From an uncultured virus (IMG/VR IMGVR_UViG_3300021400_000104) (taxonomy: Duplodnaviria > Heunggongvirae > Uroviricota > Caudoviricetes), in the IMG/VR virus record IMGVR_UViG_3300021400_000104: a stretch of DNA of 64,000 nt; one strand, given 5' to 3'. Positions 1-64,000 of this stretch are shown piece by piece (position 1 is the first letter of the stretch; each line of letters begins with the position of its first letter). The translations under genes were made by a program, and so were the position numbers. The notes below the pieces were generated by a model. It worked only from the letters and a program-made list of their open reading frames with translations, did not search any database and had not been told where the DNA came from.

Positions 1-1463
1 TTTACCACGATGGCGATTCCGCCGCTCCCTGTCGCTGTGCCGTTTTTTTCTACGACCGCGCCGTTCCCGGTATCATACGCAGACTTTCCAGGCGAGTATA
101 GATACCACCGCAGATCATACGTCGTACTGCTGCCGGCCGACGGGCATCCTGTAAGACGATAGGACCCGTTCGGAATCTTATCGGCCTCTTGATATGGCAT
201 GATCACGAATGTCGCCGACGACGTGCCATTATTCGTCCCGTTCGCAGTGACAGTCTGGTCGTCGTTCACCGTAAAGGTCACGCCGTTGATCGTTCGACTT
301 GTTCCCGTGATCTTTAGCAGATTCTTTGCACCTGCGTCGATAAGCCGTGCCACCGGAGCCTGTACCGCCTTATTCTGTACGGGATTTGTACTGGTACTGC
401 TCAGAGCATTATCCACATCCGCTGTGTTGAGCTTCGCTGCGAGCGCAGTATCCACCTGTGCCTTTGTATAGGTCGTGCTCTGCGGAGCAGCGGCATTGGC
501 TGTTCTCGCTAGGGCATTTATATCTACTCCAGTCTCTGCATTATTAGTATATATTTTTCCATTCCAATCTATTGCAAAAGCATTTGAACGATTATTTATG
601 TTATTACCATTTCCTATAATAAAAGAATAAGTATTATTTAAATCTTCTATGTTATATTTTCCTTGTACATGCTAGTTTTCACTAGATGCAATTGTCCAAA
701 GGCCTTCTGCATGGCTTCCACTACCATTAGCTCGACTCCCAGCCCCCTCTGCATGAGAAGAAGGTCCAGTCGCAACAGCTGTATTCCCTTCTGCATGTGA
801 ATAATCTCCTAAAGCTCTCGTGTTCTATCCTTCAGCATGAGAATATTCTCCTGTGGCTATGCTTTGATAAGTTCCGTTATAACGATTAAATACTTCAGCT
901 CCAGTGCCAGCAGTAACAGTTTCACTATCTATTGTATATTCCTTCCCTGTAACAATTCGTCCCGCAGAATCTATAATTCCATATCCATCAATTGTAGTTG
1001 GATTTGTCCCAGCAGTTACATGTCCTGTAGAATTTACAGTAACAGATTTATAAGTTCCAGAGCTAACTCCTGAAGAAGCATGAGAAATTGTGCGTGTTCC
1101 GCTTGTTGTTATTGCCGTACTATTATCTATATTAATTGGACTAGTTGTATTAATTTTTATAGAAGTTACAGTTCCACTTGGCTCATCGCCAGATGGAATT
1201 AAAACCCAAGAACTCCCATCTGATACAAAAGTATCTCCAATTTTTGCGCTCTAACTTGCATAAGTTCCTGCTTTAATTACTTTATAAACATAACCTGTAT
1301 TAGAAGAAGACGCTGTTGGCAAAGAAGTTATAGTGCCGCCAGTTCCAAGAGATCCTTTGAAGACCATTGGCTTTGGTAGATTCTCTATCGCCTAACGTGC
1401 AGTAGCATCTTTTATATTTAAAGAAGTTCCATCTGGGATTTTTATCTTTGAAATATCTGCCAT
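1..1463 (-). CDS. Tail fibre / receptor-binding protein (runs off the left edge; TAG read-through)
   Basis: ATG at 1463 (MADISKIKIPDG...), open to position 1 with TAG at 1392, 1251, 825 and 672. Contains SHAEG repeats and an IGNG...RSNAF motif typical of phage fibre/adhesin beta-rolls. Confidence 0.75.
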
Positions 1464-1534
1464 AATATCACCCCATATTTTTTACAATATGTGGCGAAAG
1501 CATAGAGCTTCCGCCACTATTAAAAGATATTTTA

Positions 1535-3502
1535 TTAATTCCCCTTAGTAACCTGAACGTCAGTTCCATCTGTAAGCACAGTAACAGTATCTTTACTATT
1601 CCATTCTGTATTAGCTCCACTAGCAGTAGCCTTGATATTAGTCTTAGATGGAGTAACTGTGATAGTAGATTCTGTACCAACAACTGTATCAGTAGTAGGA
1701 GCAGCATATCCAGTAACAGCAGTAACAGCATCTTTACTATTCCAAGTTGTATTAGCACCACTTGCAGTTGCTTTAACATTTGTAGTAGTTGCATTCACCT
1801 CTGTAACAACGCCAACCTTACCAGTTGATGCACTATCGGCCAATGTTGCAGTAATTGTTGGCTATGTAACTGTAAATGTAGCTCCATCTCCAATAACTGT
1901 ATCTGTTGTTGGAGATGCATACCCAGTAACAGCAGAAACAGTTTTCTAATCCTTCCATGCTACATTAGCCCCACTAGCACTACCACCAATATACTTAGTT
2001 GTACCACTAGCATCTGTGGCTACACTAATAACGCCTGTGCCAGCCGTAGCTCCTGTCGCAAGAGCAATAGTTGGCTATGTAATTGTAAATGTAGATGCAG
2101 CACCAATAACAGAATCTGTTGTTGGATCGCCTAGACCTGTAAGAGCGGTTGTGGAGGTACCATTTGTCGCTGACGTAACAACAGTTGCTCCATGCGTGTC
2201 TGTTGCCGCCACCGCACCTGTTGCAACTTGAGTAGCAGACGCAGCAGCAACTGGAACAGTAACATCAGTTGTCGCACTTACAGAGTATGTGGTTTGAGTG
2301 TCCATTGTGACCGCACCAATAATAAGCGTTTCATCACTTACACTCACTCCTTTTAGCCACTCTGTATTTAAAGTACTTGCAGTACCAGTACCCTTTGATG
2401 TTGTTTGAGAGGCACGAGTTACTTTTGATGCAGTTGTACTTCCACTAACACCAGTAACTGTAGTAGTAGCTAATTTTTTTGTAGTTGTACTAATGCTCTT
2501 CAAAAAAGTGTCACTTGATGGAGAAGAGTATCCTGTAACAACAGTTTTTTCATCTTTAGATTTCCAAACCGTATTCGCGCCACTTGCTGTCGCCTTTACA
2601 TTTGTTTTATTAGCGCTCACACCAGTAAGCACGCCAACTTTTCCTGTTGCAGTTGAATCTGTTAATGACATTGAAACAGTTGGCTAAGTTACATTAAATG
2701 TAGCATCTTTACCAACAGCATTACCTGTCGTTGGAGCACCTAGCCCTGTAATTACAGTAACAGTATCTTTTGAATCCCAATCTACGTTTCCATTAGATGC
2801 GGTTGCACCTAAATATTTTGTTGTACCACTTGCATCAGTAGCAAGACTAATGACCCCTGTTCCAGCAGTAGCATCTGTCTCAAGTGATACAGTTGGTTGA
2901 GTAATCTTGAATGTAGAATTTGCACCGATTGCGGATTTCGTAGATGGTGTACCTAACCCAGTAATTACAGTTACGTCATCTCCACTTACAGATGCACTTG
3001 TAATATCAGATACTACACTAACAGATCCTGCCGATGCAGTGGCTTCAGTAGATAAAGCTACAGTAGGCTATGTTATTGTAAAAGTTGAATTTGTACCAAT
3101 TACAGTGTCAGTGTTCTTATTCAAAGCAACACCAGTTACAACATCTGACAAGTCTAATTTTGTATCTCCGAGTTTCTCCCAAAAATATACTGCAGGATCT
3201 CCGCCCTAAGATACGGTTACATATTCATCATAAATATCTAAAGTTTCCCCTCCAGGAGTGCTTGAAGATTTTACAAGATAAAATGCCCCTATTGTATCTG
3301 CTGTAGCTACAAGAGTACCAGTATATATGGTGTCATTATATGTTACTTTTACCCCACTTGGAATATCAGCAGCTACAGGAGCCGAAGTGCCATCCCAAGC
3401 AATAATAAAGCTAACACCGCCGGAAATCATCTATCTAGCGACAGAGTCTTTTATATTATAGGTATTACCACTTGGTAATGTGATTTTTGAAATATCTGCC
3501 AT
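1535..3502 (-). CDS. Thr/Ala/Val-rich repetitive structural (fibre-like) protein, 655 aa
   Basis: ATG at 3502 with a GAGGTGA RBS (MADISKITLPSG...). Joins track ORFs 3206-3430, 2075-2671 and 1535-1843 in one frame; TAA at 1535. Internal repeats 'TF(T/N/K)(I/V)TQPT' and 'ATASGANTxWxSKD'. Confidence 0.8.
1560..3110 (-). repeat. Degenerate internal coding repeats (STFTITQPTV... and ASGANTxWxSKDxVT units)
   Basis: Five 'T-Q-P-T' units (Gln codons at 3068, 2897, 2684, 2075, 1862) and several 'WxSKD' units. Some copies are similar at nucleotide level, e.g. gtaacagyatctttactattcca near 1581 and 1722. Confidence 0.8.
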
Positions 3503-3519
3503 TTATTTCACCTCAATAA

Positions 3520-5348: not shown

Positions 5349-6254
5349 ATGAATTACAATATTGAATTGTACAATGCAAATTTAAGTTATAAGCCAATTT
5401 ATATGATGTCCTCAAAATTTTTAACGGAAGACTATGTAAATTGGATTATTAACAAAACAATGAATTCTTTTATTAAGAAATATGAAAATGCTTCTGATAA
5501 ACTTTTTATTTTAGACTATAAAGATGATCTTATTAGTGTTATCTGTTACAGAATGTTGAAAAATTTACAAAGCGTGTCTCCATTTAAATTTAATATAGCA
5601 ATTATGGGAAAGATTCATAAAACTAAACAATTTCTTCAAAAAGAAAAAAGAATTTATAAATGGAAACTTAAAAAATATTTAAAATCAAATTCTTGTGTTA
5701 TTATACAGGGATTTAACCCTCTATATAATAAAGTATTAAATACAAATATAGTCTTCAATGATTTCGATTGTCCAATTTGGAGACCTGTAGAAAACTATAC
5801 CCCTTTTGTTTTTGAAACTGCACAAGTTTTTTATCATATTGATTATATTCCACATGATATTATATTTGGACCTGATAATTATGAAGAAATGATGTCTTTT
5901 GATAAATGGTGCCGCGGCATAGAAAATTTTTACTATCCTTGTTTTGAGGATTATGAGAAAATCTATCAAATTGCTATGGTAAAATTAACAAATAATTTAG
6001 ACAAAGATATGAAACTTCTTAATGAAGTTGAAAATTTTGACGGAATTATTTTTTATTATTATGATGGAGAAATGCCTGCATTACTAAAAAGTGAATATAA
6101 TCTATTTTTAAAAAATTCCTGCAATATGCCAGGTTATAACAATATTAATAGTAGAATGGGATTAGATATTAGTGAAGATTATAAAGTACGTTATAACTTT
6201 TTTGGGGACTGGACAGATAGTCAAATTGAATATTACAAGGAGAATGAGAAATGA
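5349..6254 (+). CDS. Hypothetical protein, possibly degenerate PP-loop (TtcA/TilS-like) fold
   Basis: TAG-free track ORF of 301 aa. Weak resemblance only (LKNLQSVSPFKFNI; IWRPV); no SGGxDS motif. Confidence 0.55.
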   Translation: MNYNIELYNANLSYKPIYMMSSKFLTEDYVNWIINKTMNSFIKKYENASDKLFILDYKDDLISVICYRMLKNLQSVSPFKFNIAIMGKIHKTKQFLQKEKRIYKWKLKKYLKSNSCVIIQGFNPLYNKVLNTNIVFNDFDCPIWRPVENYTPFVFETAQVFYHIDYIPHDIIFGPDNYEEMMSFDKWCRGIENFYYPCFEDYEKIYQIAMVKLTNNLDKDMKLLNEVENFDGIIFYYYDGEMPALLKSEYNLFLKNSCNMPGYNNINSRMGLDISEDYKVRYNFFGDWTDSQIEYYKENEK

Positions 6255-6766
6255 AAATTTTTATTGTAAATGGTCAAGGTGGCGCAGGTAAGTCAACATT
6301 TGAATATATTATTCAAAAATATGCTTGGGAGGAAGATTTTAAAGATATTACGATTACTTCAATAATTGATCCAATAAAAGCAATCGCAAAAGAAATAGGA
6401 TGGAATGGAGGAAAAACAAATAAAGATAGAGCTTTCCTTCATGATTTAAAGGTATTACTACATAATTATAATAATTGCGATACAAAATATATTATAAATA
6501 AAATTAATAATGCCGAAACACTTAAGCGCGCAGCAATTTTTATTGACATGAGAGAGAAAGAAGATATTGCAGATTTTAAAGATTTGTTCCCAGAAATAAA
6601 AACCGTTCTTATTAAACGGGGAGAATTTTTCTCTTATGGGAATGAAGCAGATGATAATGTCTCGGATATTAATTATGATATTGTAATTGAAAATAATGGG
6701 ACATTAGAGGACTTTGAAAAGAAAGCGATTGATTTTTATAATAAGGAGATTTGTAATGGTATTTAA
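6251..6766 (+). CDS. P-loop nucleotide (dNMP-like) kinase
   Basis: N-terminal Walker A GQGGAGKS; IDMRE; C-terminal DIVIENNGT. Confidence 0.75.
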   Translation: MKIFIVNGQGGAGKSTFEYIIQKYAWEEDFKDITITSIIDPIKAIAKEIGWNGGKTNKDRAFLHDLKVLLHNYNNCDTKYIINKINNAETLKRAAIFIDMREKEDIADFKDLFPEIKTVLIKRGEFFSYGNEADDNVSDINYDIVIENNGTLEDFEKKAIDFYNKEICNGI

Positions 6767-7253
6767 GTATTATACTGATGGTGCTTGCACATTAAAAAAT
6801 GAAAATGGTGTGTATTCTAAAGGTCCTGGTGGATGGGCATACATCAGAATTCAAGATGGAAAAATTACAACATAGTCTAGCGGCGGCTCTAAGAAAACAA
6901 CAAATAATGAGTAGGAACTTACCGCTATTATGGAAGCATTAATTGATGCAGAGAAAGCGACCATTCCAGGTGACGAAATTGAAATCTATTCTGACTCTGC
7001 TTATTCAATAAATATTTATACTCAATGGATAAAAAACTGGGAGAAAAATGGTTGGACTCGCGGAAAGAAACATGAGCCAATTGAAAATTTATTTGTTATT
7101 AGAGATACTTATGACCTTATAAAGAGACTTGAAGAACAATTTATAAAAGTTACTTTTATTAAAGTAAAAGGCCACTCAACAGATAAATTTAATCAGTATG
7201 TCGATACGCTAGCAGTCGAAATGAAAATAAAAATGAGTCAAGCAAATGCTTGA
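6756..7253 (+). CDS. rnhA: Ribonuclease HI (TAG read-through)
   Basis: YTDGAC, GPGGWA, TTNNE[Q]EL, YSDSAY, KVKGH and N..VD.LA motifs; two TAG. Confidence 0.9.
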
Positions 7254-7308: not shown

Positions 7309-8439
7309 ATGTACGGTTATATTGATGGAATTGATTTCCATAATTTGGAAGCTGAGAAATATTGGTCTTTCCCTAAAACATATAAGGGAAATAAGCATGA
7401 AGAGACAAGAAATTTCATTTTATCTGGAGAATATTTAGGCGCAGAAAAAATGGATGGTCACTATGCTCGACTTATTAAAGATGAAGATGGTAATATTATT
7501 CTTCAGGGGCGTTCTAAATCTGTAAGCGGAGAATACCTTGATAAGCACGAATGGATGCCACAACTTAATGATTTCTTTGATTGGCTACCAAATGGAACTT
7601 GTCTTCTTGGAGAACTCTATTTCCCTAATCAGAGAGGCTCTCGTAAGGTGACTACAATTCTTGGTTGTTTGAAAGATAAGGCAATTGAGAGACAAAATGC
7701 CGGGGAAAAATTATGCTATTATATCTTTGATATTTGGGCTTGGACGGGCAACTCTCTTTTAAATACAGACGCAAAACACCGTTTTGGTCTAGTTATGGAT
7801 ATTGGCGTAGATGAAAAGACTATGTGTAAAAATGCTTATGTTAATTTTGCAAACTATTTAAGTGGAGAAAACCTTTGGGAAAGACTTTGGGGAATTTTAA
7901 ATGCTGGCGGGGAAGGGATTGTAATCACAAGAGCGAGCTCTAAGCCTGAACCTGGCAAGAGAACGGCAAGAAAAACTCTCAAAGTTAAAATGGAAATTGA
8001 ACAAACAATTGATGCTTTTCTTGATGGTAATTATAAGCGTCCAACTAGACTTTATACTGGGAAGGAAATTATGGTCTGGCCATATTGGGAAAATCTCAAA
8101 ACTGGAGAAAAATCTGATAAAAATATGTATAAAGAATATGATGCCGGATTACCATGGGAACCCGTAACAAAATCATATTATAATGGTTGGGCGAGTGCAG
8201 TTTCTTTTTCCGTTTACAAAGATAATAAGCTAGTGCATATTGGATGGATTTCTGGAATTACTGACGACTTGAAAAAGGAAATTATCTCTAATCCAGAAAA
8301 ATGGAAGAATAAGGTTGCAGAATTGACGGCAATGGAAATTGAACATATTGACGGGAATTTTAGTCTTAGACATGGGAGAATTGTAAAGTGGAGAGAAGAC
8401 AAAAATGCCACTGATTGTACTTTTGACCAGATTAATTAA
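7309..8439 (+). CDS. ATP-dependent DNA ligase
   Basis: Motif I EKMDG, GEL, YIFDI, EGIV, LKVK; C-terminal SLRH...REDK; TAG-free. Confidence 0.85.
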   Translation: MYGYIDGIDFHNLEAEKYWSFPKTYKGNKHEETRNFILSGEYLGAEKMDGHYARLIKDEDGNIILQGRSKSVSGEYLDKHEWMPQLNDFFDWLPNGTCLLGELYFPNQRGSRKVTTILGCLKDKAIERQNAGEKLCYYIFDIWAWTGNSLLNTDAKHRFGLVMDIGVDEKTMCKNAYVNFANYLSGENLWERLWGILNAGGEGIVITRASSKPEPGKRTARKTLKVKMEIEQTIDAFLDGNYKRPTRLYTGKEIMVWPYWENLKTGEKSDKNMYKEYDAGLPWEPVTKSYYNGWASAVSFSVYKDNKLVHIGWISGITDDLKKEIISNPEKWKNKVAELTAMEIEHIDGNFSLRHGRIVKWREDKNATDCTFDQIN

Positions 8440-8451: not shown

Positions 8452-9081
8452 ATGGGTAGTAAAACTTTCATGACAATTGGCGCAGAAAATCATACGAATG
8501 AAACCCGACAAGCTGAAGATTTTTATTCAAGTGATCCTCGCGCGGCCTCTCATATTTTTTCTAAAATGCCTGAATTTTTATCAGCAGACAAAATTATTGA
8601 GCCTTGTGCTGGGAATGGCATATTAGCAGATTAGATAAAAGAGATAACCGGTAAGAATGTAGATATGTATGATTTAATTAAACGAAGAGATGATATTAAC
8701 ATTGCCAATTATTTTGACTTAGATATTAAAAATAAATATGATTTAATTATAACAAATCCTCCATATAAAAAAGGGACAAAAGCTGAACCTGGTCTTGTTG
8801 AAATGATTTTAAAAATGTTAGACGATATTAGACCTAATGGATATGTTGCATTACTTTTAAAAACTCTTCATTTAGAGTCTCAGGATAGGTATAATAGAAT
8901 TTTCTCGAGTAAGCCACCAGAAAAAATTTTCGTTTATGCGCCGAGGATTACTTGCTATAAAAATGGAGATATGAATATTTCTCAAGGGGCAATAAGTTAT
9001 TCCTGGTTTGTTTGGCATAAACAAGAAAATGGAGAATACTTAAATAAATCGGTTCAATTGGGATGGATTGAAAAACTCTGA
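8452..9081 (+). CDS. DNA amino-methyltransferase (N6A/N4C), TAG read-through
   Basis: Motif I EPCAGNG and motif IV NPPY are joined in frame across TAG 8632-8634. Confidence 0.85.
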
Positions 9082-9126
9082 TTAATCTGTTGAAGAAAGA
9101 ATCTTCATATTTCACTTTATTAAGAG

Positions 9127-9157
9127 AGGGAAGACTTAGAGTCTTCCCTATTTTTAT
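9127..9157 (+). terminator. Intrinsic terminator-like hairpin
   Basis: AGGGAAGACT-tag-AGTCTTCCCT followed by ATTTTT. Confidence 0.6.
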
Positions 9158-9173
9158 TAAAGAGGTGAGTTTC

Positions 9174-10010
9174 ATGAAAGAATGTTTTTTAACTCCAATT
9201 AATATTCCCGCGCCGCCACCTCATACTCAGATTCATCCAAGGTGTTTTACCTGTAAAAAATTTCCCGTATGCAATTTAAGGGAAGATTACCTTAAAACTG
9301 CATTGTTAATGCAAAGAGTTTTAGGGGATCCTTAGGAAGATAGAGAACTTGGATAGTTTGATTATAGATGTGGATATTTACCTGGATTTAAAGGGTATAA
9401 TTTTCATAAGCCGGATGATATTTTTCCAGAAGAAATCAAAACTACTGATAATGAAACTGGAAAATTTCTTGATGCTAAATGGAGAAATTTAAATATTGTA
9501 TAGTTCATCTATATTATTGAGAAATATTATGTTCGATTTGATGCTTTCTGGAATTATGAAGAAGAAATTTTTGAAATTAGAAATGGGCATGAAGTATATT
9601 ATGGTACTCCATATATATTAGAAACAGATTCAATAGTTACTATTACTTCTCAATTAGGGGTATGGAGAAATGAAATGGAAGAAAAAGAAAAGGAGAACGA
9701 AAATTATGATGTAATAAATACGACTTATTTTTCTGCTAATTTAAATTGTGACTTTTATGAATACGAGAAGGGATTAACAGAAGAAGAAGGAATTAGACGT
9801 ATGATTGCTCATTATCCGAAAGGAATTCCTTGTAAAGATGGAAGCTATTATCATTTAGCTACATTCCATATCGAACCATATAAAGTGCCGATGTACCACC
9901 CAGAAAATGGTAAAGTTGCCTTTGCCCCAATACCGTATCCCGTTTTTGTTCCATCTCCTTGTCCACCACGTCACGCTCACCCAAAACGTAGAGAAGATTA
10001 TGGAGATTAA
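9174..10010 (+). CDS. Hypothetical protein, 278 aa, with Cys and Pro-rich termini (TAG read-through)
   Basis: ATG at 9174 after GAGGTGA; joins track ORFs 9090-9335 and 9675-10010 across three TAG. Confidence 0.75.
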
Positions 10011-10416
10011 AACATCAAAAGGGGAACAAAAACTTATTAATTTATTCCGACGTGGAGGAATACAATTTATTAGAGAAGTAAGTTTTAGTGATTTAACTGG
10101 GAAGAAAAAAACATATCTTAGATATGATTTTGGATTATTCAAAAATAATAAATTAGTTTGTTTAGTAGAATTTGATGGTAAATAGCATTACGAATACGTC
10201 CCTTATTTTCATAAAAACTATTCAGGTTTTTTAAAATAGCAAGAAAGAGATAGGCAAAAAAATAGGTATTGTTTAATGCACCAGATTCCACTTATTCGTA
10301 TTCCATATTGGGATTTAGAAGAATTAACTTTAGAAAAAGTCTTAACAAATTCAGCATATAGAGTTCAAACAAAATATCATAATGATAATCTCATAAGAAG
10401 CGGGGTGAAAAAATGA
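10000..10416 (+). CDS. Vsr/DUF559-like PD-(D/E)XK endonuclease
   Basis: SKGE, LRYDF, VEFDGK[Q]H, RDRQKNRYC and LIRIPYW motifs; its TGA overlaps the next ATG. Confidence 0.8.
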
Positions 10417-10802
10417 CATTCGCAACTTTATGGACAATTTTTAAAGGAATTGGAAGTGGAGTCGGAATTATTATTACTCTTGTTACTTTCTGGGGATTAA
10501 TTTCAAAAAAACCCAAAGCCGCACTTCACAATATGATCCTTAATGGATGCAAAGCTGCAAACTCTCAAATCGAAGATGACATGAGAGAAGTATTAAGTAG
10601 ACTTAATAAGAATGATTAGGCTACAGTTGTATCTTTAAGACATTCTATTACTAACATTTATGAAAATTATAAATAGGATAAAAAATTTCCAATTCATGTA
10701 AAGGAAGATTTAATGAGCCTTCTTGATTAGTACGACTCCTTTGGAGGAAATTCGTATGTACATACAATTATAGAAGAAATGAAAACATGGGATGTTGAAT
10801 GA
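10413..10802 (+). CDS. Membrane-anchored phage protein (possibly holin-associated)
   Basis: N-terminal hydrophobic helix; C-terminal Y..FGGNS motif; three TAG. Confidence 0.6.
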
Positions 10803-10977: not shown

Positions 10978-11205
10978 GTGATTAAGATGAATAAGCCAGT
11001 ATTATATTCAACAGGTTGTCCAAAATGTAAAGTATTAGCAAAAAAGTTAGAAATGGCAAATATCGTTTATGAAATTAAGGATGATTTAGATTCTATTACA
11101 ACTCTTTGTGATTTTTTAGGAGCTACATCTTTGCCAATTTTAGAAGTCAATGGTACATACTTAAATTTTGGGGAAGCAATTAAATGGGTAGGTGAACAAA
11201 ATTAA
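10978..11205 (+). CDS. Glutaredoxin/NrdH-like redoxin
   Basis: YSTGCPKC and a cis-Pro SLP motif; directly upstream of nrdD. Start could be ATG 10987. Confidence 0.85.
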   Translation: MIKMNKPVLYSTGCPKCKVLAKKLEMANIVYEIKDDLDSITTLCDFLGATSLPILEVNGTYLNFGEAIKWVGEQN

Positions 11206-13683: not shown

Positions 13684-13712
13684 TTCTATTATCATCCGAT
13701 GATATTAAAAGA

Positions 13713-16450: not shown

Positions 16451-16479
16451 TTGACTTTTTTTCCATTTTATGATATAAT
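16451..16479 (+). promoter_or_regulatory. Sigma-A-type promoter
   Basis: TTGACT-N17-TATAAT with extended TG. Confidence 0.8.
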
Positions 16480-16501
16480 AAATAAAAGTGAGGTGAAAAT
16501 A

Positions 16502-30437: not shown

Positions 30438-30438
30438 A

Positions 30439-53200: not shown

Positions 53201-53687
53201 TATATTTCCAAATGCTATCTTCTAAGATTATCTCTGTAAAAGTACCAAGTTCTTCGACACTATTATTTAATTCATTATCAAATTGAATATCATATCCAAT
53301 TCGTGACAATTCGTCTATAAAGCAGTCTTCACAAGTATAATTATACATAATAGCTTTAAACTATTTCTATTCTGAAATACTCTTTACATAAAACTCAAAC
53401 CACATGTTAGAATATTTCAATTTTAATTTTGTTTCATTCTTTAACAAGTCGCTAAAATCGTTATGAACATATTTCCCTGCTTTCGAATCATAAAACTTAG
53501 AAGGGAGCTAAAAAGTTAAGGTATTAGTACCCTTAATTTCTCTTTTTAATTTAATATCTGTAGCTCTACCTAGAAATTCCATATCATGGGCGCCAATAAT
53601 GGCGCCCTTTTTTTCTTTCTTTATCCCATTACTATCTAAATATTCAGTCCAGATACTTAATTCATATTCTTTTTTCTGGATTGCCAT
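50271..53687 (-). CDS. Tal/baseplate-hub-like minor tail protein (~1138 aa)
   Basis: MAIQKKEYELSIW...GTNTLTF[Q]LP...ELSRIGY N-terminus; six track fragments share this frame; lies after Dit. Confidence 0.72.
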
Positions 53688-53700: not shown

Positions 53701-56247
53701 TTAATAGAATAATGGGACATACTTAATTTGTAATTTATTAAGTAAGTCTGCATAGCCCCAATACAATGGAGGGAAGTTTGCCCAGATATAATCACAAGCA
53801 TACCACCACCATTCATCAATATCACCAATGCAACTACAATTAGCATCAGTGGTATTAACTCTCCAATAATCAGCAAGCAATTTTAAGAAACCATATTCAT
53901 CAGCTTCTATTCTGTGCCGCCAAATTTCATGACCTAATCCAAGTAATGAACCTTTTCTCTTCATATTAACATTTTCTTCATTATAATAATCATCAAAATA
54001 TGCCTCAGCCATATTTCCATATACTGAAAAGCCCTTTTCGTTCTCATGCCAACGGCGGAACTATAAATAATCTTCAATCTAATATAATTCAAGACTATTA
54101 AAATATTCTCTTAATCCATTTTGCGTAGTGTCTTCAGGCATTTTCCTCCTATCATTATCTTCGTTCGGACTCTATACAACAGAATATTTTTCTAATACCT
54201 CTAAAGGCACATTCTATGACAGATATTCTATTGCCGCGGCACGATAAACTCCATTGAATTTCTTTCTAAAATCCTCATTAGGAGTTCCCCAATCAAATGG
54301 GCGACCATCAAGCCATCTCTTTCCACCCCATACGTCCTCATCAACAACAGGACTTATATCAATCATTGACCATCCAGGTGGTAATTTAAACCAGTGCCCG
54401 CGCACGATATTTTCATTAAATAACTGTTTCGTAGGTTTAAAGTTAAAAAAGTTATCATTAAACTAAGGATTATCTTCTAAAAATTCTCTTCCTTCTTTTG
54501 TACGCGAATCTCTCCACTTCGGGTCATTTATATTATACAACATTCTTTTCTCAGTGTCAAGAAAAAGAGGTTTAATAGTTGATCTATTGACATCATCATT
54601 ACAGTGACAATTATCACATCCACAACAACAATTAGGAATTTTATCAAAGTCTTTATTATTAATATCAAAATAATCAAATGTATAATATCCAGGATAACGA
54701 GTTAAGTTAAATAAAAACTATCCATATTTTAAGTTTAATTTTTCTCTTATATATTCTGGTGGACTATAAATATAGTCATGAATAAAATCTTCGTAAGTAT
54801 AGTTCTCATTAAAAATACCAAGTCCTGGATCAACATAATTCTTAATATATTCATCTGCATCTTTAAATCTGTCTAAAATAGTATCTTTTAAAGTATGCCA
54901 ATATAGTTCATATCTTTCATGGTCATTAATACAACCTGCATAAAGTTCTTCATATCTATTAGCATATTCTTTACCCTATTCAAAATTTATTACTTCCTGC
55001 ATCATTCCATCTTCAATTAAAGAACTCTACCAATAAAATAACCTAATAAAATAACCTAATTTTTCTTTTGGAATAGGCTCAACTATATATGTATGCTTTG
55101 GATGAGAAAAACTAAGATTTTCATAAGTAGGCTCATAATTATCAGTTCCAAGAATTGGTGCCGGCGCGCCTAAAATTGTAAAATAACGATTACCATATTT
55201 ATAATCTTCATTTTCTTTTTTACGATAAGTTTTTAATCCTGTAAAGTCTACTGCTTCAGGAATTGTTAATCTCTATACATTGTATCTACTAATTCTAAAA
55301 GTATAATTATCTGTATTTTTTCTAAATTGAGAACTTAAATTTCCGAGTCTTATTTCAAAATCTATCGGCAAATCTCCTGGATTATAGACTAAAACTCTAC
55401 TGCCAATTAATCCATTCTAACGATTAAGTCCTGTATCCATATTATAATAATTTACTTTACTATATTGAGGACAATAAATTAGCTCTCTATCATAGTCTAA
55501 AGTTGGAGTAGTTAATAGTTTTGCCGTGCCTTCCCATTCAGGAATATTGTCCCAATATCCTCTTACATCTATAATTTTTTTACGTCCATCTGGCGCATTG
55601 AAATATAGTTCGCCCCATTGAACCTAGTCAATTGCTGGATAACCACCCTTCCAAGGTGTACTCATATTTGGTTCAACATTATAATGATTTTTTATTAAAC
55701 CAGGTAACATTTTGGGTGCTTTTTTCTTTTTATACGGATTATCATTAATAGAACGAGTAATTATCTCTTTAGGCTATAAGCACTTATAGTAATCGGCCGC
55801 GCGCACAACATACTTATTAAAGCAATATGCATATGGGAAATAGCAAATAAAATTCAAAGTTCCTTCTCCCTTGTAAACTCTCTCTCCTGTGTCTCTATCT
55901 GTAAAACAGATAAATTTAAAATCAGGTTTATTGGAAAGTTTTGCTCTGTATGTCTTAAATGGCATCTCATCAAATACTAAATCTTGAGGCTTATCAGTAG
56001 AAAAAAGCTATTGAATTTCTCTAAAATTCTATTCACTTACTTTATCAAAAGCTACATCTATCTAAAAACTTCTATTTCTAAAAGTCTGTCCAAAATAATA
56101 TTCTCCATCTCCTCCAGGCACTTCAATAGTATAATCTGTAGGATCAGGCAACAGGTTTTTTTCGTACCTGTCGCCTGAACTTACAACTACTAAATGAAGG
56201 CGCTCAGAATGGATATTTCCAAAGCGGAAGCCAGTAAAATCTCTCAT
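53701..56247 (-). CDS. Distal tail (Dit)-like protein with large insertions, 848 aa
   Basis: FTGFRFGNIHS...EVPGGDGEYYFG...LVFDE.P.K.Y...F.CY.PYA and NPGD motifs; directly after the tape measure gene. Confidence 0.8.
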
Positions 56248-56263: not shown

Positions 56264-59200
56264 TTATCTCCTTAAAATTACGGATGAGCCTTGAGGTCTA
56301 GCTGCATCAACAATTTCTTGTTTCATACGCTCAATTGCATTATCCATATCTACTTCACTGGAGATACTCTCTATATTAATGTTGACTTCGACATTAGTAT
56401 CTCCAACAATCTAAGAAAAACCAGTAGAAGTTAAATTAGAGTTAAGTAATGGGATAGAGGAAAGAAGTTGCGCCGCATTACCGATACGTTCTGTATCCTT
56501 TGCGGATAAAAAGGCTTCTGGTTTAACCGGAGAACCGTCTACCCAAGCGGGGCCGGTATAATTAACAAGTCCACCTTTTGCATATTTAAGAAATTCTGAT
56601 GGAATCCATTCGTAATACCCTTGTTGTCCTATTGCTAGCTCTTCTCCATTTTTCTTCCGTTGATTTATAATATTTTTATTTTGCCTTGCCCATTCTTCTA
56701 CAATAGTATTATATGCGGTAATAGGTGGATTATCGTCAGAAGGATTATAAATATTAGCGCTACGCATCGCGTTCATTAATAGAGTTTTATCCTTACTATT
56801 GTAAAGATTTTTCACTATAAAATCATAAAGCCCGTGATTTCCGAACTAATCATTAATTCCGTTTCCATTTGCGATATATGTAATACCCTATTTATATAAT
56901 GAACTGTCCTTATTAATAAAACGTTCTTTTTGATTTGAAAAACCGTCATGTAATTTTGCTGCGCCACTTTTCCCTGGAACTTCTGCCTGATATTCCCAAA
57001 GTCCAGTCGCCGAATTTTTAACAATTTGCCCCTTGCCCTTGTTGGAAACCATACTATTTTGAGCTCGAGTGAGTGAAGCAGATACTTTATAAGAAGACAA
57101 GCCACTTTTACTCCCTGTTTCATTATATGCTCCAATTCCAATACTATTTCCAGTACTTGTATTATCTCTAATTTCTTTCAATAAATCATTCTACTCTCTG
57201 ATAGCAGTTTCCAAACTGATCTTGGCGTTTTCTAAATTATCCTTAGCAGAAGTTATAGCCTAATCTACTTTATCAATTCCCTCATTAACGAATCTCTCAG
57301 CTTCATTAATTTCTGCTTCAGAAGTTGTCAATAAAGTCTAATTAATCAATTCATTATTACCATTAAGTGCCTCTGCCATCTAACTTCCGTCATAATTATG
57401 ATAAAGTTCAATAGAATCATAATAATCTTCCCAATCTCTTATCTGCTATTCAAGTTTAGCATCTGACATTTCTGTAACTTCTTTATTATTAGCAATCATC
57501 CAAGCAGTAACATCATCAGGACTTGTCCAGCTACTTATAATCTAAGTTGCCTCTCTTATAATAGCCTATTCGTCAAGACTTTGCTCCTATAACTCAATTT
57601 CTCTTTCTCTCTATTCTTTCTATAAATCATACATCTATTTCAAATTATCTAATATATCATCAACAGTATCATCAAGAAGCGACTATCTATCAGATTCAAT
57701 TTCTTCATTTAATTTATTTAACTCAAGTCTATTTACTCCACTTGTATCTCTTGCAAGTAATGCTGCTTGGCTCTCTTTCTTAGCTAAGTCTTCCCATTTA
57801 TTCTACTAATCTCTTAATTTTCTCTATCTATCTATTGCATCTTGAAGAGCATCTAAATATTCACTATCTGCATCTGTCATAGCTTCATTTTTCTCTTTAT
57901 TGGCGTCTATCTCTTCTTGGTATTTATCTTTCAAAACTTTAATAACTTCATCTTCAACTTTTACATATCCATCAACAATTTTCCTTTCAAATTCTTTTAA
58001 TTCTTCGCGACGTTTCTCCATAGCTTCGTCAATTTCACGAACTTTCTTATTACCCTTATTAATTTCATCTATTACATTTTCAATCATATCTCTAACGTCA
58101 TCAGGAAGATTTGCAGCATTAAGTTTATCAAAGTCAACTGCTAATATGCCAGTTAATGGATTCTAATAATAATATTGACTTATATCTGTTGAAATATTAC
58201 TGTTATATTTCTTATTTAATTCCTAAATTTTTGATGCAATGCCAGTGTCTAATTGTCTCTAATAATTAGCAATAGACTATTCATAAACTTTTCTTTCGGC
58301 TTGCTATACAGAAGATTCCTATTCAAGTAAACTGCGATAATCTTCTAAAGAACCTTGCATATCATCAGTAGTTAAATTATCAATTTTGTCTTTTGTTTTA
58401 TCTATTTGATGCTAAATTTCTTCGAGCATATTATTATAATTATACATAGTATCTAACTTATTCTTCTTATTATCAGTACCATATAGAGTTTCATTTAATT
58501 TTTCTTGTGCTTCAATAACTTTTTTCTATGCTTCTTCGACCTTCTTAGTAGCATCTGCAATTTTTTTACTACTATCTTCAACAGTCTTTGTACCTTTCTT
58601 TATTGCCTCGTCCTCAATTCGAGCCAATCCTTTTATATATGCACCTTCATTAGCAAATTTAGATTTCCAAAAATTATCATCAGCTAATTTTTTCTAACCC
58701 TCTTTAATTGCTTCATTATATTGTTTAAGTGTCTCTTTAACTTTCTCTCTATATTCCGGGCTTTCATTTATTTTATTTGCCATAGTATTAAACATTTTTT
58801 GAATGTTATTAGCATCATACTCTGTTCCACTCAATTCAGTTCTGAAAATTCTCGCTGCCGCGGCTGCATCATAAGTGCGCTTTGTGACATCTCCCATGCC
58901 ATCTGCCTAATCAATAATAGTCTAATATGTATTTCTTTCCTAAATAAGCTGTTCAATACCTGCTTCATATTCCTATTTAGCTTTAGCAATCAATTCATCT
59001 TTTCCTGATATAAGTCCCTATGTATCTTCATACAATTTATCATATAGGAACTAAATATCTCCATCTGAATTAGTGGAGAAATAATCAGAAGCATTTAATC
59101 TTAATTTATCAATTTGTTCTGTAATTTTCCCTTTGCTTAAAGGGTCAATAAATCCATTTTCAACCTATTCAGAAATATAGGAGCTAACATTATTAAATGC

Positions 59201-62200
59201 CTCATAATATCCACTTATTGTTGTTTCAATACTATTTTCAATATTTTCTAATGCGCCACTTGATCTAATTGTCAAATCAATTGCATTATACTTTTCTGCA
59301 CTATTAAAGAAATTACTCCACAACTAATCAATAGTATCCTAATCAAAAGAGTCTCCCATTGCTGTTTGCATAATACTAATAAACTATTCACGCATAGTAT
59401 CAAGATTTGTTAAATCAATATTTTCCCAATCAAACGCCTATAGCGCGGCAGTAGTCATAGTTTCATCTAATCCAGCAGCTTCAGCACTATCTACTAGAGA
59501 TCTTATAAATTGTCCTGCTAAATCTTCGTCTTCTAATTTCTTCTCAGCTTTATTAAATACTTCAGAGATTTGTGTCAATGTATTTGTAGACCAATTTTCA
59601 TTAACTCTCCCAAGAATATCTTTTACTTCTTCTTGTAAGTCAATTAACTATTTAGAATATTCTCCTGTTATTTGATTTTTAATTTCTTCAACTACTTCTT
59701 CATTCAATCCAAGAGAATCAATAAAATTGTTAATAGCGTCAATTTCAGCTTGAGTTGCTCCATCAGAAAGTTGTCCTAAAAGATTAGTTAATTCTTGATA
59801 ATCTGTTTTTCCTAAATTTTTTAGTGCTACTTGAGTCTCTTCTGTAAGTTTTTCCAATTTCGTAGCATTTGCAATTATAGTTAAAATTTCCGCCTATCCT
59901 GCTGAATCTCCTGCACGCTTTAGCCATTCAGCGTCAGCAGCATCATCATAAATTTTTTCCCAAGCCTTAATAATGTCATCAACTATTAATTTACCATCTT
60001 CTCCTAAACCAGCGGCAATTAGCTGATCAGCAAGTTCTCCAGTAATTTCGTTATCTTTTCTTTCTCTTAGTTTAGCAAGACTAGAAAAGCTATTTTCAGA
60101 TACGCCAAAGCGAGCACCGCCAAGCTAATTAGTTAAAGAATTAATATTTTTATTCTATTGGCCTAATGTGAAGAGACCAGCTATTGGACTTAACATTCCA
60201 GGAATATTAGCATATTCAGTCCAATAACTACCATTTTCAGCATTTACTGTTTTAAATCTCTCATCATTAATATTTTCAGCATTTTTTGCATTAATTGCTC
60301 CTACGGCAGTCCAAAGAGCGTTTTCTCCTTCGGTTAATTCTTCTCCTCTATTAGCAGCATATTCCTAAGCAATAATCTATCCTGTCTATTTATAACCATT
60401 TTCAATATTTGCAGAAATCTAGTCAGCAGCATCCGATAATATTTTGCTTAAATTACTATTTGTGTCTAATAAGGCTTCATATGTTTTGTTTTGTATTTCT
60501 AAAGAATTTTCCCAAATCTACTGTCCATCATCATAAGGAATTTCCAAAATTTCAGCAAGCTATCTTAAATCTGTATCATCAAAATTTGGAATATAGTTCG
60601 TAGGTAAATTTTCTCCAATAGACTTACCTTCTTCAGAATAATTTTTAATTAAATCTTCTACTAAACTTGCCTACAATCCTGTATTAGAAGAAACCTAACT
60701 AATAATATCTTTTTCGTTAGCTTTTGTATTAAGAGATACTGCTGACATATTCGCTGCATTAGCAACTTTTCTATCTATTTCAACTTGTCTTTCTTGCTAT
60801 TTAATAATACTATCCCATAAACCTTCCTAAATTCTTAATTCTCCAGTTATCTCATTATAATAAGAAACAATTTCTGGGAAAGAACTTTTTATTTCATTGA
60901 CTAATGAGTTATATTCCTGCTATTCTTCCTCTGTTTTAACTACTTTTCTTGATAATTCTTCATAACGTTCTTTTAATTCTTTAGTATGCTCGGCAGTCTT
61001 CTTGCTATCTTCCGCAACCTTTTTAGTTTCACTTGCATAGCTTTTAGCCTCTTTGGCGCTTTCCTTGATTGCATTAGTATTATCTTGCCAAGCCTCTTCC
61101 GTAGTTTTAATATTTTTAATTTCCTAAATTGTTAATCCAATTACAATACCTAATACAGCTGCAATTCCCGCGATTGCCAAGGAAATTCCTGCTGTTGCTG
61201 CCGCGGCAGCAAGCCCTACAGTAGCAACTCCAGCTAAAAATTGGGGGATAATTACCGCAGCTGCAGAAATCATTGTATTTTGAAGAGTAATTTTTATTAC
61301 ATCGAAAGGATTATTTGATGCTATAGCGGTTGTAATAGATGAAGTAAGTGCAGTAACAAAAGCGACACCGGCCGCTTGTCCTATCTGAGCGTACTAGGCC
61401 TAAGTATTAGCTTTTATTTTATCACTTAAAACCTTCTACTCTTCATTAGTTAATCCTTCTTGATTAAGTTTTCCACCAGAATATTCAAATACTCCCTTAG
61501 CAATTATGCCTGAAGCGCCAGTAGAAGTAAAAATTTTCCCTAAGCTAGCTTGCAATCCTGGTATACTCTACTATGTTGCTGTAATTAAATTACTAAAAAC
61601 TCCCTATCCCGCGAGAACTCCTGACGTCTAAAGCAATTTAAGCGTTGTAGCAAGTGCCGCACCAATTCCTAAAATTTTAGTAGGCCCAATTTCATTCATT
61701 TTATCTACAACTTTTGTTAACCATTCAATAACTCTCTTAAATACATCACTATCAATCAAAGAAGTCCTAAACTGTTCCCAAGAATTTTTTAACTAATTAA
61801 CTTTATATTCTACAGTATCTTGATATTTAGCAAACTATTGCTCTGATCTACCAGCAGAATCTTGAGCGACAGAAACTAGTTCCATAGTTCTATCATAGTC
61901 CTCCATCATAGCAATAAAACGTGACTATTGACGAGAACCCGCAGCAATGGTAGCAATATACCTCTGTGTATTTCTATCTAAAGATTTCCATTTAGAACTT
62001 AATTCAAGGAATACTTCATCCAGATTTCTGAACTATCCGTTTGCATCTTTAATACTAATTCCAACACTTTTTAACGCTTTATCAACTTTATTAAATTCCA
62101 AATCATCAAATTCAGACTAATCTGTTCCAGCAACATTCTCTTTTAATTCAGTAAAACGTGCGATAATAGTTTTCATCGCAGTACCAATATTTTCAGGAGC

Positions 62201-63919
62201 TTCCTAAGTAGTCTCAATCATATTAGTAAGGAAAGCTGCAGTTGATTCAAAACTCATACCTGCTGAACTTGCAATAGATGCAGTCTTACTCATCGCATAG
62301 GCAATACCATTTACATCTGCCGCAGCATTAGCAGCAAGTTCTGAATATACGTCGGTAACATGAGCGCCCTAGTCCATTTCCAAATGGAAACCACGAAGGG
62401 CAGCTGTCATCTGCTAGGTTGCAGTCTCAAAATCTGCTCCTGCCAAAGTTGCAAGTTTCATAGTATCTTCAGTAAGTTTTAACGCTTCATTTGTATCAAG
62501 ACCTTGCTGATAGAATAATGCAGATGCCTTAATCGCAGATTCTGTTGACTGCCCTAATCTGTTAGCAATATCTGTATACTAGCTATAAGTATCCCACAAC
62601 CCAGCAACAGTTTTGTCTGTTACCATTGCAATTGATGCAAAAGCCTTATCAAGAGATTGTACATCAGAGAAAGTCTATCTGATGATATTTCTTAATTGAT
62701 AATAAGCATTTCCTAAAGAAAAAATATAAGCAATTCTGCTTTTTAACTAATTTAATGTATTATTAAACTTCTACTAATTATTTGCTGCCTATTGGGTATC
62801 TTGAATTGTTTTTCTTAAAGTTTGTAAGTATCCTTGAGTCTATCCTTTCATACCTTCAATAGCATTATTATTATTTCTATATATTGTTTCTAATTCTTTT
62901 GTCTAATTCGAAGTTCTTTCTTCTGCTTGCTTAATATTTTTATGCGCCTGTTCATTTTTTTTAATTTCTTCACTATTTCGGTTTAATGAATCATTAAAAC
63001 TATCCATATCTTGAATGTTTTTTTCTGTCTATTTCTAATTATTTACAAGTTCTTTATCGAGATTTTTTAATACATTCTGTACTGGAGCAACATTTTCCTA
63101 AAATCTTCTAATTCCTTCAGCAATTTTATTCTCAATTGTTGCAGTATTTGTTGCTGTTATATTATGCTCAGTTAAAAACTGGGTAAAATCTTTTGTTGCT
63201 TTTTTTGCATTAGTAGTAGATGAGACAATTTTGACAAAAGCCTCTTTTATCTAATCTAATTGCTATAAATTTATATTTTCTCCTGTTGTAATGTCTTTAA
63301 AATTATTTGTTCTAAATCCAACTTTTGAAACAGAAGATAACTAATTATTTAAATTATTAGTAGCATTTTGTTTTTCTTTTTCTAATTCCTGTCTTTTCTA
63401 TTTTTGTATATCTAACTATTCCTAATATACTTCTTTAACTCTCTTCTAAATTTCTTCTAAACTTTTACCTTCTTTTACTGCTTCGATAATTTCCTTTTTT
63501 AGCGCGGCAGCCTAACTTCCTTTTATAGAGCTTGTATCTACTTTAAAAGTATTTGAAAACTATTTAGCTAAATCAACAGCTTCTTTTTTTAATTTATCGA
63601 CCTCTTGTTCAGCTTCTTTTATCTATCTTTTGAAATTGTCTGCATTTATATTGTCAAGTGAATTCCCAATTTTAATAATATTCGTTTCTAATTTATTAAC
63701 ATTATTTTCAAAAGTTTTTAATTCTTTCGGAGAAGAAAAACCCTTTTCTGCCTAAGCCTTTAATGTAGCTCCTAATTCTTCAACTTTTTTAATTTCTTTA
63801 TCTAAATTTCCTAAGAGTTCAATATTTCCTCCTTTAGAAACAGAATCTCTTACCTATTTTATTGCAGATAATATTTGCGATATATCAAATACGCCTCTGT
63901 ATTCAATTTTTTCAGTCAT
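56264..63919 (-). CDS. Tail tape measure protein (~2551 aa, TP901-like core)
   Basis: ATG at 63919 with a GAGGTGA RBS; LDKAFASIAMVT, IGTAMKTIIARF and IAAGSRQ[Q]SRFIAMM motifs; hydrophobic Ala/Gly region, long coiled coils and C-terminal YAKGGLVNYTGPAWVDG. Very TAG-rich; continuity inferred from in-frame fragments. Confidence 0.88.
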
Positions 63920-63934
63920 TTAACTCACCTCTTA

Positions 63935-64000
63935 TTAATCAAAATTTGATAAATTAAAACTGATTCCTTTAAAAATTATTCTAGCTTTTAAGTCTTTAAT
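63935..64000 (-). CDS. 3' end of an upstream tail gene (partial)
   Basis: ...IKDLKARIIFKGISFNLSNFD followed by TAA TAA. Confidence 0.4.
   Translation of the reverse strand: MKDLKARIIFKGISFNLSNFD

Follow-up and report, generated by a model that had tools for sequence, protein, structure and literature searches.

The window analysed here, the whole 64,000-nucleotide stretch of DNA, almost certainly derives from a large uncultured siphovirus-type phage in which UAG encodes Gln and gene ends are marked by UAA and UGA alone, most likely by means of its own tRNA(CUA), which would be encoded outside the window, probably be charged by the host, and outcompete release factor 1 (RF1). The phage represents a distinct new lineage of the already well-documented TAG=Gln (code 15) phages.

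In-frame TAG codons in the window

When TAG is read as Gln, the window contains 46 genes, of which 40 (87%) carry at least one in-frame TAG and none carries an in-frame TAA or TGA. The Gln-type codons (CAA, CAG, and TAG) of these genes comprise 341 TAG, 336 CAA, and 110 CAG. Of the 45 genes whose end lies inside the window, 28 terminate in TAA, 17 in TGA, and none in TAG, as the preliminary description had proposed; TAA is the preferred stop and the GC content is 31.8%. Under code 11, stop-to-stop open reading frames (ORFs) of at least 100 aa cover 52.6% of the window; reading TAG as sense brings this to 96.5%, so that the anticipated rise in coding density was obtained. The cover is 59.9% if TGA is read instead and 91.5% if TAA is read instead, the latter being made up of 233 short ORFs (mean, 161 aa) that overlap one another, as their summed length is about twice the length covered. 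Under code 11, most genes are split into pieces; with TAG read, Pfam domains run unbroken across TAG codons, e.g. in NrdD (residues 86–636 of 645 aa) and also in DnaE.

All eight in-frame TAGs singled out by the preliminary description are present in the peptide contexts that it gave (asterisk, TAG): 24629 (NEA*N) and 24713 (GDFK*AD) in the PhoH gene, 34691 (S*E) and 34937 (I*TLYL) in the DnaE gene, 32221 (NL*V) in the HNH gene, 10183 (EFDGK*H) in a gene labelled DUF559, 14780 (SSNN*) in the NrdG gene, and 12669 (E*IPGE) in the NrdD gene. The five coupled stop/start junctions were likewise found, namely ATGA at 10413, 14797, and 27389, TAATG at 36298, and minus-strand TAATG at 40109. The last ten codons of genes contain 4 TAGs versus 7.6 expected; with no enrichment at this place, a second role of TAG as a leaky terminator close to gene ends was rejected. 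The recoding had been called genome-wide; it extends across the 64-kb window, which does not demonstrate it for the whole genome.

Assignment of TAG to glutamine

The reading of TAG as Gln is supported by three comparisons at the codon or residue level. Among 669 codons of 12 related IMG/VR loci aligned to TAGs of the window, 242 are CAA or CAG and 54 are TAG; the most frequent residues after Gln are Lys (60 codons), Glu (54), and Asn (52). In a column-profile analysis of these relatives, the log-likelihood was −1423 for Gln, −1962 for Lys (the runner-up, 539 behind), and −2061 for Glu, and TAG columns resemble CAA/CAG columns in the mix of residues that they hold. In the reverse direction, TAGs of the relatives fall on 47 of 1220 Gln positions of the window (3.9%) and on at most 0.4% of the positions of every other residue, i.e. 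they are ten times commoner on Gln than on any other residue. Finally, of 61 TAG columns aligned with SPbeta and Enterococcus VRE9_3, two cultured phages with the standard code, 16 are occupied by Gln in these phages (background, 3.5%), both DnaE sites given above among them; the log-likelihoods were −158.5 for Gln and −178.0 for Lys. A preference of homologues for Gln at TAG columns, on which the earlier assignment depended, is thus seen both in the relatives and in cultured phages. Ten TAG sites were aligned with the NrdD of Thermotoga, which carries Gln at two of them, one being the E*IPGE site. A search for NrdD homologues yielded at least 120 full-length matches with 67–97% identity (118 of them at ≥73%) on contigs of up to 184 kb, but these were kept out of the Gln analysis because their translations may already place Q at TAG by convention.

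TAG ends none of 131 orthologous genes in the relatives. The possibility that TAG was derived mainly from CAG was rejected, since the CAA:CAG ratio of the relatives is the same at window TAGs (147:95) as at window CAAs (290:176).

Gene organization

The minus-strand genes at the start of the window encode a tail-fibre-like protein (3..1463; 4 TAGs), which runs past the window start and matches only PHROG families without known function, a Thr/Ala-rich repetitive fibre-like protein (1535..3502; 7 TAGs) that shares the N-terminal MADISKI motif with the former, and two small proteins without assigned function (3520–3921, no TAG; 3931–4437, 4 TAGs). The plus-strand block begins with two TAG-free genes (5349..6766) for a 301-aa hypothetical protein and a 171-aa dNMP-kinase-like protein (phrog_139, E = 1e-8). 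These are followed on the same strand by genes for RNase H (6687..7253; 3 TAGs; PF00075, E = 1.9e-27), an ATP-dependent DNA ligase (7309..8439; no TAG; PF01068), and, at 8452..10802, a methyltransferase, a hypothetical protein, a nuclease-like protein, and a small membrane protein (1, 3, 3, and 3 TAGs, respectively). The DUF559 label previously given to the gene at 9805–10416 was not upheld, as only a sub-threshold match to DUF2726 was obtained (E = 6.7e-4; 19.8 bits versus a cut-off of 24.7). Next on the plus strand are the anaerobic ribonucleotide reductase NrdD (11205..13142; 11 TAGs; PF13597, E = 1e-91), two hypothetical proteins (13129..14349; 1 and 3 TAGs), an NrdG-like activase (14327..14800; 1 TAG, six codons ahead of the TGA stop), a GIY-YIG homing-endonuclease-like protein (14797..15468; 5 TAGs), and a thioredoxin-reductase-like flavoprotein (15487..16446; 1 TAG; PF07992).

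The B (16451..18364) and A (18412..20790) subunits of a gyrase/topoisomerase IV, both on the plus strand, are encoded without TAG among 16 and 19 Gln-type codons (P = 1.1e-4 and 2.1e-5, respectively). They are followed, still on the plus strand, by a hypothetical protein and a YorF-like protein (phrog_2367) at 20790..22562 (3 and 5 TAGs), a Sak4-like AAA_24 ATPase (22607..23584; 8 TAGs), a PIN-PhoH ATPase (23633..24883; 8 TAGs), a helix-turn-helix protein (24976..25695; 6 TAGs), a DnaB-like helicase (25692..27392; 4 TAGs), a YorJ-like DNA primase (27389..28450; 2 TAGs; phrog_47, E = 1.6e-42), a RecJ-like exonuclease (28438..30198; 8 TAGs), and a Dam-type methyltransferase and an HNH endonuclease (30633..32355; 2 TAGs each). 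The YorL-like, DnaE-type DNA polymerase III alpha (32348..36298, plus strand) is depleted in TAG (5 of 34 Gln-type codons; P = 3.8e-4), and at 36298..39719 of this strand are genes for a hypothetical protein, a ClpP-like protease, a dUTPase, and a RuvC-like resolvase (4, 4, 4, and 8 TAGs, respectively).

The other genes of the window are on the minus strand, apart from a small hypothetical gene on the plus strand (42805..43182; 5 TAGs). Five small late-block genes (39747..42652; 1, 1, 1, 11, and 11 TAGs) include that for a 136-aa Gln-rich protein (42242–42652) with 8 TAGs per 100 codons. The remainder encode an M23 peptidase (tail lysin or endolysin; 43217..44515; 11 TAGs), two large proteins of the tail or baseplate (1922 and 1138 aa; 44525..53687; 48 and 22 TAGs), a Dit-like distal tail protein with a Sipho_tail domain (53701..56247; 15 TAGs), and a tape measure protein of 2551 aa (56264..63919), in which 92 of 168 Gln-type codons are TAG. 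No terminase gene was found within the 64-kb window.

Graded recoding and TAG-free genes

TAG accounts for 221 of 412 Gln-type codons (∼54%) in the tail/late block versus 106 of 342 (∼31%) in the replication/nucleotide-metabolism block (Fisher P = 5e-10). The same direction was seen in relatives G001 and G003, and the replication blocks of these relatives are TAG-poor (8–10%). In the three genomes compared (the window and two sequenced relatives), TAG makes up 15, 26, and 43% of Gln-type codons, the window being the most recoded; here, recoding extends into the genes for the polymerase, helicase, primase, RecJ, and NrdD. The gradient agrees with a published model whereby genes expressed before the suppressor has accumulated keep to the standard code and those expressed afterwards rely on the switch.

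Six genes lack TAG. Only for the two gyrase subunit genes is this absence clear by test. For the other four (the ligase gene, the pair that opens the plus-strand block, and a 133-aa gene), it is suggestive at most, none being individually significant given the 46 genes tested. The GyrA orthologues of four relatives contain 1, 0, 1, and 0 TAGs, and a TAG-free gyrase throughout the lineage was therefore rejected. Because the GyrA counts of G001 and G003 match their TAG-poor replication blocks, a special avoidance of TAG by gyrase is shown in the window only.

Suppressor tRNA, release factor, and synthetase

No tRNA was detected in the 64-kb window by ARAGORN or Rfam, in agreement with the earlier statement that it holds no suppressor tRNA gene. 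The phage's own suppressor is therefore inferred from relatives with 69–79% identity in DnaE: ARAGORN found tRNAs with a CUA anticodon, which it labels ‘Pyl’ by default, in all four large related contigs (five genes in total). All five have 3–4-nt variable regions and no additional arm in the ARAGORN folds and are 53–68% identical to one another. A U1:A72 first pair is present in all five and in all 5 tRNA-Gln of these relatives, versus 11 of 85 other tRNAs. As tRNA-Gln is the closest tRNA of the same genome in only one of five cases, the Gln identity of these tRNA(CUA) rests on U1:A72 and the codon alignments.

Neither a release factor (PF00472) nor a Glu/Gln-tRNA synthetase (PF00749) was detected in the four large relatives. 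HDV-like ‘theta’ ribozymes have been described beside tRNAs (PMC10879173), but none was found next to the tRNAs of the relatives, where only tRNA and tmRNA reached the Rfam threshold. The tape measure gene with its 92 TAGs would need nearly 100% suppression per codon, which would be demanding for a plain suppressor tRNA.

Relatives and host

A public metagenome contig of 134,765 bp is identical to positions 18–10120 of the window (10.1 kb compared), and complete relatives are 164–180 kb. In IMG/VR, no exact match to 50 bases of the window was found. The best cultured DnaE matches are those of SPbeta-group Bacillus phages and Enterococcus EF1/VRE9 phages (38–39% identity over 99% of the length), which share with the window the order Sak4-like ATPase, DnaB helicase, YorJ-like primase, RecJ-like exonuclease, and DnaE. 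Unlike the window phage, they use the standard code, and their structural genes show no detectable similarity to those of the window. A megablast search with positions 20000–44999 gave no match in 50,697 phage records. Membership in Spbetavirus was rejected: the replication module is syntenic, but DnaE is only 38.7% identical, and neither a megablast match nor tail-gene similarity was found. The tie to SPbeta-like phages is distant and confined to the module level. The Dit protein matches only Paenibacillus phages, across 17% of its length. The earlier suggestion of a Firmicute host agrees, at the level of homology, with the best cultured matches, which are Enterococcus, Bacillus, and Paenibacillus phages. 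Close relatives of DnaE were absent from 185,579 species genomes, so that no prophage or binned copy names the host.

Discussion

Code 15 phages of gut microbiomes have been described in crAss-like, Lak, and ‘gemstone’ clades (Borges et al., bioRxiv 10.1101/2021.08.26.457843; Peters et al., PMC9523058). In-frame TAGs, the gain in ORF cover, Gln columns, and the lack of TAG terminators all place the window among such phages, with which it also shares a tRNA(CUA) carried by relatives in the lineage, a low GC content, TAA as the preferred stop, heavier recoding of late structural genes than of replication genes, and a differing extent of recoding between close relatives. It differs in that its replication module is also recoded (31% of Gln-type codons), whereas the published crAss-like and Agate maps depict replication genes in the standard code. 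TAG occurs in 87% of the window genes versus published clade means of 26–71%, a part-genome value set against whole-genome means. Phage phAss-1 (Phassvirus, OQ749652; Babkin et al. 2023, PMC10607447) is described as a siphovirus of 136 kb whose tape measure gene is very long; it has TAG=Gln, TAG in 28% of its ORFs, and a large tRNA set that includes tRNA-Sup(CUA), and lacks a synthetase of its own. When the proteins in the first 100 kb of this 136-kb record were compared, homologues of DnaE, RecJ, the Sak4-like ATPase, primase, gyrase A and B, ligase, ClpP, dUTPase, and resolvase were shared, at just 23–38% identity. The Dit protein of the window had no match in phAss-1. With these identities over the first 100 kb and no megablast match, membership in the proposed genus Phassvirus (∼80% or more nucleotide identity plus synteny) was rejected.

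A host that itself reads UAG as Gln or lacks RF1, to whose code the phage is merely matched, would make a phage-driven switch unnecessary and would explain why TAG occurs in 40 of 46 genes, polymerase, helicase, and primase included, a proportion near the ∼90% that the Borges preprint (bioRxiv 10.1101/2021.08.26.457843) gives for code-25 phages on code-25 hosts; the relatives' lack of a detected release factor or synthetase gene also suits it. It is nevertheless very improbable, given that all four large relatives have their own tRNA(CUA) and that the TAG-free gyrase genes and the TAG-poor replication blocks of relatives (8–10%) point to a phase of standard-code translation. TAG is not known to encode Gln in any bacterium. 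According to the published survey, the hosts of such phages use the standard code.

Even less probable is a reading of TAG as Glu, Lys, Leu, Tyr, or pyrrolysine: Lys, Glu, and Asn do come next at TAG columns and ARAGORN calls the CUA tRNAs ‘Pyl’, but the latter is a default label, Gln exceeds Lys and Glu in the profiles of the relatives and Lys in those of the cultured phages, and TAG columns have the residue spread of CAA/CAG columns. Damage to dead genes, through prophage decay or sequencing or assembly errors, could likewise break most genes into pieces under code 11, yet it is the least credible explanation of all, since the frames are interrupted by TAG alone, independent related contigs have the same pattern with 54 TAGs at the same codon, and the public contig agrees with the window at 10,103 of 10,103 bases.

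Under the favoured reading, a UAG=Gln switch driven by the phage, the genome would most likely encode an amber-suppressor tRNA(CUA) in a tRNA array outside the window, like the arrays of its relatives. A host enzyme would probably charge this tRNA with Gln, and the charged tRNA may then outcompete RF1. Genes expressed before the suppressor builds up would keep the standard code, with the switch being needed for later ones. According to the Borges preprint (bioRxiv 10.1101/2021.08.26.457843), suppressor tRNA(CUA) is found in 40% of genomes with TAG recoding and is thus common, not universal. More speculatively, and with considerable doubt, TAG may here have moved from a marker of late genes to the joint commonest Gln codon, spreading into the polymerase, helicase, primase, RecJ, and NrdD genes; if the small TAG-free set is real, the switch might be complete before replication instead of serving as a lysis timer, and the three genomes might record a stepwise takeover of the code.

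TAG=Gln recoding in phages is already well published, and current understanding is not overturned. Table 11 gene callers shatter this phage into fragments, and table 15 is needed for its annotation. The window adds to the known recoded phages a distinct lineage that is large and gyrase-bearing and whose cultured relatives infect Firmicutes. The series from 15 to 43% TAG, formed by the window and two sequenced relatives, could serve to study stop-codon capture, could show which genes resist it (here the gyrase genes), and could be used to probe how suppressor tRNAs are charged in hosts that may lack glutaminyl-tRNA synthetase.

TAG as a sense codon

Under the bacterial code (code 11), 52.6% of the window, which has a G+C content of 31.8%, is covered by stop-to-stop open reading frames (ORFs) with a length of 100 aa or more. 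Reading TAG as a sense codon increases the cover to 96.5%, as anticipated in the preliminary description, which had proposed that TAG encodes Gln (genetic code 15) throughout the window, and the mean ORF length from 169 to 290 aa, the longest ORF being 2552 aa. When TGA was read as sense instead, the ORF cover was 59.9%. Reading TAA as sense gave a cover of 91.5% from 233 short ORFs, the summed length of which is about twice the covered length; such ORFs are expected by chance in AT-rich DNA.

With TAG translated as Gln, 46 tightly packed genes were identified, which contain 341 TAG, 336 CAA, and 110 CAG codons in frame, and 40 of these genes carry one TAG or more. Of the 45 genes that end inside the window, 28 terminate in TAA and 17 in TGA, in line with the earlier statement on gene ends. 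Pfam domains run unbroken across TAG codons in NrdD (E 1e-91), DnaE, PhoH, RecJ, DnaB, ClpP, dUTPase, the tape measure protein, and Dit. The eight in-frame TAG sites and the five ATGA or TAATG junctions previously cited were all found in their places. The gene described as ‘DUF559’ contains the TAG in question, but the family assignment was not retained, as the gene gave only a sub-threshold match to DUF2726. The TAG-to-Gln observation is confirmed in the window.

Amino acid assigned to TAG

Twenty-three window genes were compared by tblastn with 12 related IMG/VR loci, the DnaE proteins of which are 69–84% identical to that of the window, using codons and not database translations. Among the 669 codons aligned to window TAGs, 242 were CAA or CAG and 54 were TAG, with Lys (60), Glu (54), and Asn (52) being the next most common residues; 22 more window TAGs lay opposite gaps. 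A substitution profile was taken from these alignments for every amino acid, and the profile of the TAG columns scored −1423 against that of Gln, −1962 against that of Lys, and −2061 against that of Glu. In the reverse direction, TAGs of the relatives were found at 47 of the 1220 window Gln positions (3.9%) and at no more than 0.4% of the positions of every other residue. Three fragments (L003, L004, and L012) lack in-frame TAGs throughout their aligned genes and carry Gln codons at 10/24, 26/59, and 4/4 of the window TAG sites, respectively. These three cannot be labelled standard-code phages, because, across all 12 loci, the 131 ends of orthologous genes include none with TAG.

A recoding-free test was provided by the replication modules of two cultured standard-code phages (Bacillus phage SPbeta and Enterococcus phage VRE9_3), against which the window proteins were aligned with X at each TAG. 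Gln occupies 16 of the 61 aligned TAG columns (background Gln, 3.5%), two additional columns lie opposite gaps, and the best fit was again Gln (−158.5 vs −178.0 for Lys). Both phages have Gln at the DnaE sites S*E and I*TLYL (asterisk, TAG), and Thermotoga maritima NrdD has Gln at the E*IPGE site; Gln is found at 2 of the 10 TAG sites aligned in this NrdD. The interpretation of TAG as Gln is borne out by both sets of homologues and is supported at the level of sequence comparison.

Gradient of recoding

TAG accounts for 43% of the Gln-type codons (CAA, CAG, and TAG) of the window, with a share of 54% in the late block (39747–63919) vs 31% in the replication block (5349–39719; Fisher P = 5e-10). 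At the level of single genes (binomial P values, uncorrected, over 46 genes), TAG use is above average in the tape measure gene (92/168, P = 0.002) and the gene for a 1922-aa tail protein (48/82, P = 0.004), and DnaE is depleted of TAG (5/34, P = 4e-4). The genes for gyrase B and A (16451–20790) are the only long genes of the window that lack TAG (0/35 Gln-type codons; GyrB, 0/16, P = 1e-4; GyrA, 0/19, P = 2e-5), and they have retained CAG at 18/35 compared with 92/411 elsewhere in the window (P = 4e-4). Among the other TAG-free genes, the ligase gene (0/6, P = 0.033) and the first plus-strand gene (0/7, P = 0.019) lose significance after correction for 46 tests, and the remaining two contain just two Gln-type codons each (P = 0.32). 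The most TAG-dense gene, located at 42242–42652 on the minus strand, contains 11 TAGs (8 per 100 codons) and encodes a 136-aa protein with 15% glutamine and Q runs, for which no family match was found.

In two large related phage contigs compared as whole records, TAG represents 26% (G001; late 36%, replication 9.5%) and 15% (G003; late 17.5%, replication 8%) of the Gln-type codons, in the same direction as in the window and at lower levels. By automatic calls with the same caller, 48 and 46% of the genes of G001 and G003, respectively, contain TAG vs 76% in the window. The window phage is more heavily recoded than these two relatives. The picture outlined in the Borges preprint (bioRxiv 10.1101/2021.08.26.457843) is one of standard-code early genes, recoded late genes, and close relatives that differ in code use. 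The window agrees with this outline in that late genes are more recoded and relatives differ, but its recoding extends well into the replication genes.

The GyrA orthologues of the four large relatives (G001–G004) contain 1, 0, 1, and 0 TAGs. Because low numbers in G001 and G003 are predicted from their TAG-poor replication blocks, special avoidance in gyrase genes is shown in the window only. Three causes can be put forward for these TAG-free and CAG-rich genes: they may be expressed early, synthesis that depends on suppression may be selected against, or the genes may have been exchanged recently with a relative in which recoding is less advanced.

tRNAs and the decoding of TAG

ARAGORN detected no tRNA in the window, and no Rfam family of any kind was matched there. 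The four large relatives possess tRNA arrays (26, 49, 14, and 9 Rfam matches and 26, 49, 12, and 8 ARAGORN genes, respectively), and all four carry a tRNA with the anticodon CUA, G002 having two (five genes in total). UAG is probably read by a suppressor tRNA(CUA) of the kind carried by these relatives. The five tRNA(CUA) are 53–68% identical to one another, and the nearest tRNA within the same genome is tRNA-Gln for just one of them. The first pair is U1:A72 in 5/5 tRNA(CUA), 5/5 tRNA-Gln, and 11/85 other tRNAs of the four relatives. This pair is a recognition element for GlnRS and for the GatCAB amidotransferase, which is the Firmicutes’ route to Gln-tRNA. The release factor domain (PF00472) and the Glu/Gln-tRNA synthetase domain (PF00749) were searched for in the four relatives and gave no match, in contrast to control genomes, where matches were obtained. 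A reliance of recoded phages on host synthetases is proposed in the Borges preprint (bioRxiv 10.1101/2021.08.26.457843).

Full-length tmRNA genes (Rfam RF00023) are located close to tRNA genes in G003 (1518–1885 of its piece L047, minus strand; 82.7 bits) and G004 (329–696 of its piece L050, plus strand; 92.3 bits), and may be of interest as phage-borne ribosome-rescue RNAs in a stop-codon-recoding lineage. Both contigs also contain a tRNA-Leu(UAA)-like gene with a 47-nt insertion in the anticodon loop (G003, L048 1285–1415, minus strand; G004, L049 3929–4059, plus strand). The insertion is conserved between the two contigs and is too short to be a group I intron.

Distinctive loci

The gene order of the window follows that of G001 and G003, except for a block at 11205–16446 that encodes NrdD, two unknown proteins, NrdG, a GIY-YIG endonuclease, and a thioredoxin-reductase-like flavoprotein. 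This block has no counterpart in the two contigs apart from one GIY-YIG match in G003 that is weak and non-syntenic (33% over 48%), and it is fully recoded despite this absence, with 11 TAGs in NrdD. At least 120 full-length relatives of NrdD were found on other phage-sized contigs, and 118 of the matches listed are 73–97% identical.

Two adjacent fibre-like genes (3–3502, minus strand) share the N-terminal motif MADISKI..P.G....IKD..AR. Their G+C content (41–43% vs 32% for the window) suggests a swapped or compositionally distinct module, predicted to be receptor-binding. Two plus-strand ORFs, 9090–10010 and 9805–10416, overlap by 206 bases in different frames, and both frames have matches in one and the same overlapping region of G001. 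The overlap may be genuine, or the true start of the second gene may lie farther downstream. The DnaE match spans 4.4–5.1 kb in L003, L004, L007, and L010 vs 3.9 kb in the window, which suggests that the gene holds an insertion in these relatives, for example an intron, intein, or homing endonuclease. The DnaE start of the window is instead adjoined by an HNH gene (31504–32355).

Relatives and host

Among 50,697 GenBank phage records, the best matches of DnaE were in Enterococcus phages (39%) and the SPbeta group (38–39%), and all 1421 matching records were below 60% identity. These phages have the gene order Sak4-like ATPase, DnaB helicase, primase, RecJ-like exonuclease, and DnaE in common with the window. 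The tail genes are far from those of all cultured phages, and Dit matched only Paenibacillus phages, across 17% of its length. Megablast of positions 20000–44999 yielded no matches, and no close DnaE relative was found in 185,579 species genomes. Over the first 100 kb of phAss-1, a recoded phage already published, a replication core that includes gyrase is shared with the window at only 23–38% identity. On the basis of homology, a Firmicute host may reasonably be inferred.

Positions 18–10120 of the window are matched without any difference by the end of a public metagenome contig (134,765 bp); if the two are collinear, about 70 kb of the phage would lie past the other end of the window. Terminase genes are absent from the window. 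Related contigs measure 122–180 kb, two of them with terminal repeats.

TAG-to-Gln recoding in phages is already established: the Borges preprint (bioRxiv 10.1101/2021.08.26.457843) presents a survey of 473 recoded genomes, metaproteomics validation is described for crAss-like phages (PMC9523058), a 136-kb siphovirus group with suppressor tRNAs and this recoding has been described (PMC10607447), and a ‘Caudoviricetes code 15 clade’ is an entry in the NCBI taxonomy. The window phage belongs to this known recoded kind as a new and distinct lineage, of modest novelty.
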